NCBI GenBank assembly: GCA_016873575.1
Contig: VGWY01000001.1
Coordinates: 1 to 39,425 of the forward strand
Reading direction: 5' to 3'
Source of the DNA: Nitrospira sp.
GTDB taxonomy: Bacteria > Nitrospirota > Thermodesulfovibrionia > Thermodesulfovibrionales > SM23-35
Length of the DNA stretch: 39,425 nt
The notes under the pieces are model-generated. The model ran no database searches. It saw only the letters and a program-made list of their open reading frames with translations, and had not been told where the DNA came from. This document shows positions 1,971-3,089 of this stretch, one piece after another. The position numbers and the translations under genes were made by a program. The first letter of the stretch is position 1. Each line of letters starts with the position of its first letter.

Positions 1971-2540
1971 ATGGAGATTGATGAGAAAATGATACTGGAT
2001 AGAGAGACTTATTTTCAGAAAGACGTCAGTCATCATGATCCAAATACCTATCAACTGGCAATCGTTCAGATAGAAGAAGTCTTTTGCACATATTGGCATC
2101 CGCTCAAGAAGGTGAGGGTGCTTGCTCAACAGGTAAAAGACGGTTTTGAGGAAATCAGTCCGTTTATACAGAAAATCACTGAGAAGGTTTGTCCTGATTG
2201 CAGGAATATTTGCTGTATTAATGCGCACAGTTACTATAACTATGAAGACCTTGTATATATCCATGCACTTGGCCTGAAGCCACCAATCTATGAATTTAAG
2301 AGGAAAGATTCAGACCCCTGCCAATTTCTTTCTGAACATGGTTGTCGCATGGAGCGGATTATTCGGCCTTCCGGTTGCAATTGGTATTTTTGTGATACCT
2401 TGTTTGATTCTATGGAGAAAATGCCAGGGTATGGAACATTTGATATTGCTCTGGGAGAAGTGGCAAGCCTCTGGCTGAGTTTAATAGATGAGTTTACTCT
2501 TTTTCAAATAAAAATCCGGCAGCGACCTACTTTCCCATAA
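1971..2540 (+). CDS. YkgJ/UPF0153 family cysteine-cluster protein
   Basis: CPDCRNICC (CxxCxxCC) plus DPCQFL...GC...RPSGCNWYFC. Start moved to ATG 1971 because the track start at 1911 would overlap the divergent NYN gene. The last 26 nt overlap the antisense 5S gene. Confidence 0.6.
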   Translation: MEIDEKMILDRETYFQKDVSHHDPNTYQLAIVQIEEVFCTYWHPLKKVRVLAQQVKDGFEEISPFIQKITEKVCPDCRNICCINAHSYYNYEDLVYIHALGLKPPIYEFKRKDSDPCQFLSEHGCRMERIIRPSGCNWYFCDTLFDSMEKMPGYGTFDIALGEVASLWLSLIDEFTLFQIKIRQRPTFP

Positions 2541-2630
2541 CCTCACAGCTATAGTATCATCGGCCCTGAAGGGCTTAACTTCCGTGTTCGGAACGGGAAC
2601 GGGTGTTTCCCCTTCGGTATCGCCACCGGA
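2515..2630 (-). rRNA. rrf: 5S ribosomal RNA
   Basis: The reverse complement reads tccggtggcgatac...ccgttccgaacacggaagttaagccc...gccgatgatac...gggaaagtaggtcgctgccgga. It has the 5S hallmarks CCGAAC, AGTTAAGC, GCCGATG and AGTAGG, and the termini pair to form helix I. Confidence 0.9.
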
Positions 2631-2676
2631 AACTTATAGTATATTAACACGAATATTTTTATTTTTGCAAGTAAGT

Positions 2677-2752
2677 TGGTGGAGGTGAACGGGATCGAAC
2701 CGATGACCTCCTGCTTGCAAAGCAGGCGCTCTCCCAACTGAGCTACACCCCC
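2677..2752 (-). tRNA. tRNA-Ala (anticodon UGC), CCA encoded
   Basis: The reverse complement gggggtgtagctcagttgggagagcgcctgctttgcaagcaggaggtcatcggttcgatcccgttcacctccacca folds as a cloverleaf. It has the G3:U70 Ala identity pair and anticodon loop cTTGCAa. Confidence 0.95.
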
Positions 2753-2882
2753 AGTGAAATTTGCAAAGCAAATTTTTGAGTTTAAAGTTAAAAGTTCAAA
2801 ATGAAAAGTTCTTAAGAAATTCACTACTTGAAACTTTAAACATGAAACTTGAAACTCCGATTTTGCCTATGGCAAAATCGGT

Positions 2883-2959
2883 TGGTGGGCCTAATTGGAA
2901 TCGAACCAATGACCTCACCCTTATCAGGGGTGCGCTCTAACCGACTGAGCTATAGGCCC
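2883..2959 (-). tRNA. tRNA-Ile (anticodon GAU), CCA encoded
   Basis: The reverse complement gggcctatagctcagtcggttagagcgcacccctgataagggtgaggtcattggttcgattccaattaggcccacca has acceptor GGGCCTA/TAGGCCC and anticodon GAT. Confidence 0.95.
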
Positions 2960-3059
2960 GTGGCCCTGTGATTGATCACATGTGCTTGATCAATGTTTAT
3001 GGCCATGCAGCTAAAAAAGTATTTGCATTTTTGGCTTTTCAAAGAACATGCATAGATAC

Positions 3060-3089
3060 TATATACCCTATGTTGTTCAATTTTGTCAA
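3060..3089 (-). promoter_or_regulatory. Sigma70-like promoter facing tRNA-Ile/tRNA-Ala/5S
   Basis: The minus strand reads TTGACA (3089-3084), an 18-nt spacer, then TATATA (3065-3060). This is about 100 nt upstream of the tRNA-Ile 5' end. Confidence 0.4.

Follow-up and report, generated by a model that had tools for sequence, protein, structure and literature searches.

A tRNA-Ile, tRNA-Ala and 5S rRNA unit with an rRNA-operon leader in Thermodesulfovibrionales, probably a deletion remnant of a classical operon

The classical order of ribosomal RNA (rRNA) genes in bacteria is 16S-tRNA-Ile-tRNA-Ala-23S-5S, as in E. coli rrnA/D/H. In the 39,425-nt stretch analysed here (the window; positions 1 to 39,425, forward strand, of contig VGWY01000001.1 in the Nitrospira sp. 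assembly GCA_016873575.1, order Thermodesulfovibrionales), the genes for tRNA-Ile(GAU), tRNA-Ala(UGC) and 5S rRNA stand together on the minus strand with neither of the large rRNA genes (Table 1). An initial annotation made from the letters alone had reported these three genes, spacers of 130 and 46 nt between them and the absence of 16S and 23S, and all of this was confirmed: ARAGORN and Rfam recovered the genes (the gathering score of the Rfam 5S model is 38 bits), the spacer lengths follow from the sequence, and neither 16S nor 23S was matched anywhere in the window at the Rfam gathering threshold, or at E <= 10 in 2400-3250. The remark that no 16S can lie upstream holds as well, since rpsF starts at 3214 on the opposite strand and therefore just 254 nt upstream of tRNA-Ile. 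The unit has Ile(GAU) followed by Ala(UGC) and the 5S last, as in a classical operon; a 16S is missing from its 5' end, and 46 nt take the place of a 23S between the spacer tRNAs and the 5S. With a putative promoter upstream of tRNA-Ile, contiguous Ile-Ala-5S genes and a T-run as its only apparent end, it would form a free-standing unit.

Table 1. Features of the Ile-Ala-5S unit and its boundaries in the window, and 6S-like elements upstream of 16S genes elsewhere. ITS, internal transcribed spacer; ORF, open reading frame; MFE, minimum free energy.
Feature	Position	Strand	Evidence or remark
rpsF, first gene of rpsF-ssb-rpsR, divergent, upstream boundary	3214..3567	+	Pfam Ribosomal_S6, 7.7e-26
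Putative sigma-70-type promoter	3060..3089	-	TTGACA 3089-3084, 18-nt spacer, TATATA 3065-3060
rrn-type boxA antitermination box, TGTTCTTTGAAAA(GCC)	3033..3048	-	Identical at 16/16 positions to the 16S leader of a classical operon (G007)
ACTTTTTTAGCT, relic of the 16S-to-tRNA-Ile ITS (3' side of the 16S processing stem region)	3009..3020	-	12/12 match
Leader hairpin ATTGATCA-N8-TGATCAAT, 8 bp, just 5' of tRNA-Ile	2971..2994	-	MFE and centroid folds
tRNA-Ile(GAU)	2883..2959	-	ARAGORN; Rfam, 76.2 bits; CCA encoded; sole copy in genome
Ile-Ala spacer, 130 nt	2753..2882	-	Alignment with ITS of classical operon
Hairpin H1 in Ile-Ala spacer, CCGATTTTGCC-ATA-GGCAAAATCGG	2881-2857	-	In predicted fold
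Hairpin H2 in Ile-Ala spacer, AAATTTGC-TTT-GCAAATTT	2775-2757	-	In predicted fold
tRNA-Ala(UGC)	2677..2752	-	ARAGORN, Rfam; CCA encoded; sole UGC copy in genome
Ala-5S spacer, A/T-rich, 46 nt, at expected 23S position	2631..2676	-	Sequence
5S rRNA, full length	2514..2630	-	Rfam RF00001, 110.1 bits, model positions 1-120; sole copy in genome
T-run TTTTATTT directly 3' of 5S helix I	2506..2513	-	Sequence
Convergent ORF, downstream boundary	1971..2540	+	Final 26-27 nt antisense to 5S 3' end
6S-like element	C178:4525-4695 (L002:1270-1440)		6S match, 32 bits, full length
6S-like element	G009:C31:6368-6557		6S match, 43.6 bits, full length
6S-like element	G030:C1:2241274-2241469		6S match, 41.6 bits, full length

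The draft genome, of which the window is contig 1, comprises 2.6 Mb in 351 contigs and is estimated to be 96% complete. The tRNA-Ile(GAU), tRNA-Ala(UGC) and 5S of the window are the only copies in an assembly with 41 tRNAs. The genome-wide count of 16S, 23S and 5S proposed in the initial annotation returned, besides this single 5S, only the first ~630 nt of a 16S at the end of contig C178, and no 23S fragment anywhere in the assembly. Such counts cannot decide the nature of the unit, and we therefore compared it with relatives.

Four of these (G024, G030, G002 and G007) each carry one operon of the classical order 16S-Ile-Ala-23S-5S (type A) and one in which 16S and 23S are just 93-138 nt apart and which lacks tRNAs and 5S (type B); a single 5S was found in each of G024, G030 and G002, and none in G007. 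Across relatives the type B ITS measures 76-138 nt. The type B locus also has conserved flanks, with F22, F21 and F36 upstream of the 16S and an rpoD-like sigma-factor gene after the 23S (at ~80-100 nt where measured, in G009 and G024), and it was without a 5S in G009, G024, G030, G014 and G034. Because the partial 16S on C178 has both this upstream flank (F22, F21, F36) and a type B leader, the 16S of the window genome lies at the type B locus. The rpoD-like gene is found in this genome on C191, where it is cut by the contig end, and its paralogue on C181 has no rRNA nearby. In the window the 5S is likewise not adjacent to a 23S, and the C178 flank points to a type B operon in the genome.

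Several relatives have type B only, with the tRNAs and the 5S elsewhere (G009, G014, G034 and the closed f11 genomes and the f12 genomes; f numbers denote families). In G009 (type B ITS of 121 nt) and in five f12 genomes (G233, G232, G245, G236 and G240; ~95-122 nt) Ile-Ala-5S forms one unit. G006 and G014 have Ile-Ala adjoining rpsF without a 5S, which in G014 (98 nt) is at a third site; in G034 (76 nt) Ile-Ala and 5S are at separate sites; and the closed f11 genomes G208, G209 and G227 have no contiguous Ala-5S and a short type B ITS, a single BLAST alignment bridging the end of the 16S and the beginning of the 23S. G020, with no assembled 16S or 23S, has two 5S genes (C70:2724-2840, L123; C99:4847-4963), one of them ~900 nt upstream of the rpoD-like gene that usually follows the type B 23S, on a 12.7-kb contig devoid of other rRNA, a further arrangement of the type B locus.

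The leader of the window unit resembles that of type A operons. The promoter put forward by the initial annotation, TTGACA-N18-TATATA, is present and has the architecture of the classical (type A) rrn promoters of relatives. Our consensus promoter scan did not list it because the scanner requires a T at position 6 of the second hexamer; the call therefore relies on the conservation of its position and sequence, as TTGACAAA with an A/T-rich -10 occurs at the same distance from boxA in the units of G012, G009, G006 and G014 and likewise ahead of the type A 16S in G024, G007 and G002. The promoter is followed, as in classical operons, by what appears to be a boxA, whose sequence TGTTCTTTGAAAAGCC matched the classical 16S leader of G007 with E = 0.002 (blastn-short). 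Its 13-mer is identical in the G012 and G009 leaders, differs at one or two positions in G006 and G014, and also occurs upstream of the 16S on C178. The combination of TTGACAAA, -10 and TTGTTCTTTGAAAAGC (boxA) is common to type A and to all the Ile-Ala(-5S) units of the window's family (f1), and is not that of type B. Further downstream, ACTTTTTTAGCT matches the 16S-Ile ITS of the type A operons of G024 and G002 at 12/12 positions. The match alone is short (E = 0.59); it carries weight because it is collinear with the classical operon, in whose order it sits ~12 nt past boxA in the alignment with the entire 16S missing between. The 8-bp leader hairpin reported earlier was recovered in both the MFE and centroid folds, nested within a GGCC/GGCC outer stem (3004-2962); the small hairpin that G012 has in the corresponding place is a different one.

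We searched for further units with a covariance model running from the 3' part of tRNA-Ala across the spacer into the 5' part of the 5S, which is matched end to end only if the genes are contiguous; contiguous units scored 117-154 bits, isolated 5S genes at most 73 and isolated tRNA-Ala genes at most 50. The model gave some match in 215 of 317 genomes of the order, and 21, the window's included, have a contiguous Ala-5S. These comprise all 14 matching genomes of family f12, one genome each of f3 and f9 and, in f1, the window genome, G012, G009, G192 and a doubtful G205, whose Ile-Ala-5S contig has exactly the f12 spacing and comes from a metagenome-assembled genome (MAG) with a second 5S; this contig is possibly mis-binned and was left out of the evidence for f1. 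In a sample of 401 genomes of the phylum, contiguous Ala-5S was found in 16, ten in the window's order and six in other orders of the class (f14, f16 and f19), and in no other class. The full order Ile-Ala-5S was present at 19/19 inspectable loci of the order survey. A pattern scan of metagenomes gave nothing with a strict 5S start; with a relaxed pattern it gave six contigs of at most 74 kb, five with Ile-Ala-5S and a sixth that begins just before tRNA-Ala. The unit also lies inside a 104-kb contig of G009 and a 275-kb contig of G035.

Comparison of the locus itself, another check that had been proposed at the outset, showed the same order recurring and synteny on both sides in G012, a member of the same family and a different genus. 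The order in G012 is HNH, DUF507, DUF507, rpsR, ssb, rpsF, then the divergent Ile-Ala-5S, the homologue of the convergent ORF and, at a greater distance, the NYN/YacP and PAP2 genes; rpsF adjoins the Ile-Ala(-5S) units of G006 and G014 as well. The f12 units are compact (2-nt and ~55-nt spacers), with a conserved TTGACA-N17-TATTTT promoter, a boxA-like TTGCTCTTTTAAAA ahead of tRNA-Ile and a strong hairpin terminator with a T-run after the 5S. Because these three elements are kept, Ile-Ala-5S can be regarded as a stable, complete transcription unit throughout this family. In the f3 unit (G141:C10, L138), Ile-Ala-5S is followed 35 nt later by a tRNA-Met(CAT).

All these data suggest that the window unit is, very probably, a functional transcription unit descended from a type A operon that lost its 16S and 23S by deletion, one of the alternatives listed in the initial annotation and the one supported by the classical leader, the ITS-homologous spacer and a 16S scar in G012. 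In the G012 leader, boxA is followed by GTGCGAGCATACCT, the 5' strand of the 16S processing stem, and the next 26 nt are identical to the 16S 5' end (blastn-short E = 4e-9); ordinary blastn gave 91% against 16S positions 8-43. This relic extends to about position 52, ending TAATCAC, and then jumps to CTTCTTTAT, which resembles the last 9 or so nt of the 16S (the 16S 3' end reads CTCCTTTCT). The ITS motif GCATTTTTTAG comes after the scar, ~45 nt before tRNA-Ile. By its sequence the scar is a 16S gene minus roughly positions 53 to 1530, at a locus syntenic with the window, and because this locus holds both 16S termini, a 16S once stood between boxA and tRNA-Ile. In the window leader no 16S bases are left, and boxA and the ITS motif follow each other in the classical order. 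In addition, the Ile-Ala spacer of the window aligns with those of the G007 classical operon, G004, G006 and G009 and shares both hairpins with them, the pairing of H2 being kept in G004 through a compensatory change on both sides. Covariance-model scans of the window (2400-3250) and of G012 showed no 16S or 23S relics, only the tRNAs and the 5S, because such relics are too short for these models and need direct alignment.

Two relatives point to intermediate stages. G192, of the same genus as G009 and 88.6% identical to it along the 1.87 kb that start with tRNA-Ile and take in the genes downstream, has the 16S 3' part and a canonical ITS before Ile-Ala-5S where G009 has the promoter and boxA, and is a probable intermediate lacking only the 23S. 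G004 (C16, L115) has 16S-Ile-Ala with no 23S in the next 8 kb, on a contig that ends inside the 16S; its downstream flank (F48, F47, F46 and F51) is common to G014 (C10, L112), whose Ile-Ala adjoins rpsF without a 16S, and it may be another intermediate. As an observation apart, G012 (C45, L117) carries a short repeat, AAATAATGCAATTAACCA.AG.GG.CACTGA with CTCTGTG motifs, at ~2085-2120 between rpsF and the promoter and at ~2865-2900 inside its 184-nt Ala-5S spacer; its appearance suggests that a small mobile or repeat element was inserted at the former place of the 23S.

Another alternative of the initial annotation, a free-standing tRNA-tRNA-5S mini-operon as a form of unlinked rRNA genes, stood in part. 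The unit is free-standing, holds sole copies and is conserved in f12; it is not a case of the usual unlinking, since the relatives keep 16S and 23S together and have split off the spacer tRNAs and the 5S instead.

Several points weigh against descent by deletion. The 23S of the window genome is unassembled and its 16S runs off a contig end, so that from flank synteny and relatives we infer both its type B operon and its lack of a second classical operon. No 23S relic was seen in the window or in G012 with covariance models and blastn-short, nor in any Ala-5S spacer with blastn-short, and we infer 23S loss by deletion from gene order. Both G192 and G004 begin or end inside the 16S, and could be chimeric joins through an identical tRNA-Ile. 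In G024, G002 and G007 the classical operons are at another locus (flank F24-F11-F42), and the ancestral operon may have lain there or beside rpsF. The scan found no canonical terminator for the window unit, which has only a T-run without a separate hairpin, and its transcription, boxA function and processing are predictions. Lastly, synteny and independent assemblies are the grounds on which a mis-join in this particular assembly appears to be absent.

This last issue bears on the remaining alternative of the initial annotation, that a collapse or mis-join across rrn repeats hides a complete 16S-Ile-Ala-23S-5S operon. Such an artefact is hardly credible here and can be called close to refuted. 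The draft state of the assembly (351 contigs, a partial 16S, no 23S) does indicate that rRNA regions assembled badly, but a collapse would leave rRNA at the junctions, and 2400-3250 shows no rRNA fragments: tRNA-Ile is preceded by the promoter/boxA leader, with rpsF 254 nt off, and the Ala-5S spacer is a unique A/T-rich sequence. Furthermore, this gene arrangement recurs in 20 more assemblies of Thermodesulfovibrionales, in six genomes from elsewhere in the class and in six metagenome contigs, the synteny with G012 extends to both flanks, and G009 has its 16S-23S operon intact elsewhere, with a 121-nt ITS too short for tRNAs and no room for a 5S ahead of the next gene; independent assemblies and synteny thus leave this alternative unsupported. 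It is also improbable, if somewhat less so, that the tRNA pair and/or the 5S moved beside rpsF from elsewhere without any operon decaying in place. None of the classical operons of G024, G002, G007, G030 and G039 is syntenic with the window locus or lies beside rpsF, and in-place decay therefore rests on the G012 scar. The 5S is mobile in the family, being alone in G014, G034 and G020 and missing from the Ile-Ala of G006 and G014 by rpsF, and the lack of a visible 23S relic between Ala and 5S would fit a transfer. However, the syntenic G012 locus has 16S termini between boxA and tRNA-Ile, in the window both the leader and the Ile-Ala spacer show collinearity with a classical operon, and, in a comparison by eye, the first ~30 nt of the G009 Ala-5S spacer resemble the start of the G030 Ala-23S ITS. 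It could also be that a whole operon arrived at the rpsF locus and decayed there later.

A different possibility concerns the 5S alone: a promoter of its own in the 46-nt spacer would make two adjacent units instead of one operon. We consider this unlikely, though less so than the artefact or the transfer. Promoter-like hexamers lie upstream of the 5S in G035 (TTGACA-N18-TAATAT) and G012 (TTGAAG-N17-TATAAT) and before the stand-alone 5S genes of G034 and G020, and the window has TTGCAA-N18-TAATAT. This window match is weak (8/12) and unreported by the consensus scan, and such matches are expected by chance in very A/T-rich sequence. Neither the scan of the window nor the predicted fold gave a hairpin, promoter or terminator in the Ala-5S spacer, and in f12 the promoter and boxA-like box precede tRNA-Ile and the only hairpin terminator seen in the 70 nt covered after the 5S follows that gene. 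Because no promoter or terminator was detected between them, co-transcription of tRNA-Ala and 5S is the default reading, and an additional internal promoter ahead of the 5S is possible.

If the unit did arise by deletion from a type A operon, its retention can be proposed to have proceeded as follows. The type B operon would supply the 16S and presumably the 23S in the window lineage; tRNA-Ile(GAU), tRNA-Ala(UGC) and the 5S had to survive because they are single-copy, essential and missing from type B. The redundant type A 16S and 23S would then have been deleted and the small-RNA genes kept with the rrn-type promoter and boxA leader. Transcription would start a few nucleotides past the -10 element (3065-3060), the boxA (3048-3036) would recruit the Nus antitermination complex as in rrn operons, and a single precursor of ~550 nt would be made, for which a stable fold is predicted (z = -5.7) that includes both ITS hairpins and the one in the leader. 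The two tRNAs, whose CCA ends are encoded, would be freed by RNase P and 3' trimming, the 5S would be matured from the 3' part of the precursor, and transcription would end at the T-run after the 5S. In this way the retained rrn promoter and boxA could subject the 5S and both tRNAs to control of the rRNA type and so coordinate them in trans with the 16S-23S operon.

Fragmented rRNA operons are found in reduced genomes of other lineages. In Rickettsia, Buchnera, Helicobacter and Thermus the 16S is apart from 23S-5S, and in Borrelia 16S-tRNA-Ala-tRNA-Ile is apart from 23S-5S repeats. There too the operon is broken up and the pieces stay functional; in all of them the 5S remains with the 23S, whereas in the window it remains with the spacer tRNAs. 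Crenarchaea have a 16S-23S operon without spacer tRNA and transcribe the 5S separately, which is a like division of labour (a tRNA-less 16S-23S, the 5S from another unit) in another domain, with no common origin, no tRNA-tRNA-5S unit and no boxA leader. The classical operon itself shares with the window unit the promoter and boxA leader, the Ile-Ala-5S order, the ITS hairpins and the terminal 5S, and differs in having both large rRNA genes and their processing stems.

Closest to our case, a 5S distant from the 23S has been reported for Thermodesulfovibrio sp. N1, of the same order, in which 16S and 23S are linked by a short tRNA-less ITS and the 5S is not beside the 23S (PMC5165239); that report describes neither the tRNAs, the leader nor the origin. 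We see this layout in the closed f11 genomes G034, G208, G209 and G227, where the 5S is alone and, in G034, Ile-Ala is at a third place, while the window keeps tRNAs and 5S together behind an rrn-type promoter and boxA. Brewer et al. define rRNA genes as unlinked when 16S and 23S are >1500 bp apart (10.1101/705046). Their cases likewise depart from the single-operon rule, mostly in slow-growing or uncultured lineages; the text nowhere mentions '5S rRNA', Nitrospirota, deletions or remnants, and refers to tRNA genes only as usual occupants of the ITS. Because their 16S-23S ITS is 76-138 nt, the relatives would score as 'linked' under this definition, which concerns the 16S-23S distance alone, and judging from relatives (121 nt in G009, ~95-122 nt in f12) the window genome would not be unlinked either. 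Our literature search found no description of a tRNA-Ile, tRNA-Ala and 5S unit with an rrn leader and no report of a 16S deletion scar, which is not proof that none exists.

It is rare that the transition between a classical and a fragmented rrn operon is legible in sequence, as it is here: G012 keeps both ends of the deleted 16S and the congeneric G192 and G009 differ by a 16S at the same locus. The relatives present type A with type B, type B with Ile-Ala-5S, and type B with Ile-Ala and a lone 5S as stages. The case also suggests a constraint on operon decay, in that genes missing from the second operon were kept together with the rrn promoter and boxA, and raises the question of whether boxA/Nus control matters for a transcript of small RNAs only. 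In practical terms, 16S-ITS-23S amplicon methods will see just a short tRNA-less ITS in these lineages, rRNA-based MAG completeness estimates or operon counts that assume a 5S after the 23S will mislead, and surveys that score the 16S-23S distance alone miss this kind of fragmentation.

A more tentative idea, which we regard as possible and no better than that, is that the rRNA genes of Thermodesulfovibrionia have repeatedly been reorganised into two cooperating units as a selected regulatory architecture, and not by mere decay. One would be a large-rRNA unit made of a 6S-like structured RNA, boxA, 16S, short ITS and 23S, with the rpoD-like gene directly downstream; the other would be a small-RNA unit of promoter, boxA, tRNA-Ile, tRNA-Ala and 5S, whose Nus/boxA control would match the 16S/23S output in trans. 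If this were true, the recurrence of the unit (f1, f3, f9 and f12; f14, f16 and f19) and the retention of boxA without a long rRNA would be a signature of selection.

A conserved element of ~190 nt lies directly upstream of every type B 16S that we examined, on the same strand and with boxA in between. Its full-length matches to the 6S model (Table 1) fall below the gathering score of 46.4, and a long rod fold is predicted with 54 pairs, nine of which are kept through changes on both sides. A canonical 6S is found elsewhere in each genome (in the window genome at C3:27461-27641, 92.5 bits), and the element may be a second 6S-like RNA co-transcribed with rRNA.

Downstream of the unit, the convergent ORF 1971-2540 matched no Pfam family at E <= 0.001. 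Its G012 homologue abuts the 5S there with an overlap of 17 nt, and the antisense overlap between ORF and 5S therefore counts as conserved. Elsewhere in the window, the NYN/YacP gene (1412-1927, minus strand), when read from an upstream ATT, gave a Pfam NYN_YacP match of 97 bits starting at profile position 1 and residue 4, consistent with translation that begins 5' of the TTG at 1840. In addition, a thiamine pyrophosphate (TPP) riboswitch unrelated to the Ile-Ala-5S unit was found at 11694-11801 on the plus strand (63.8 bits, above the gathering score).

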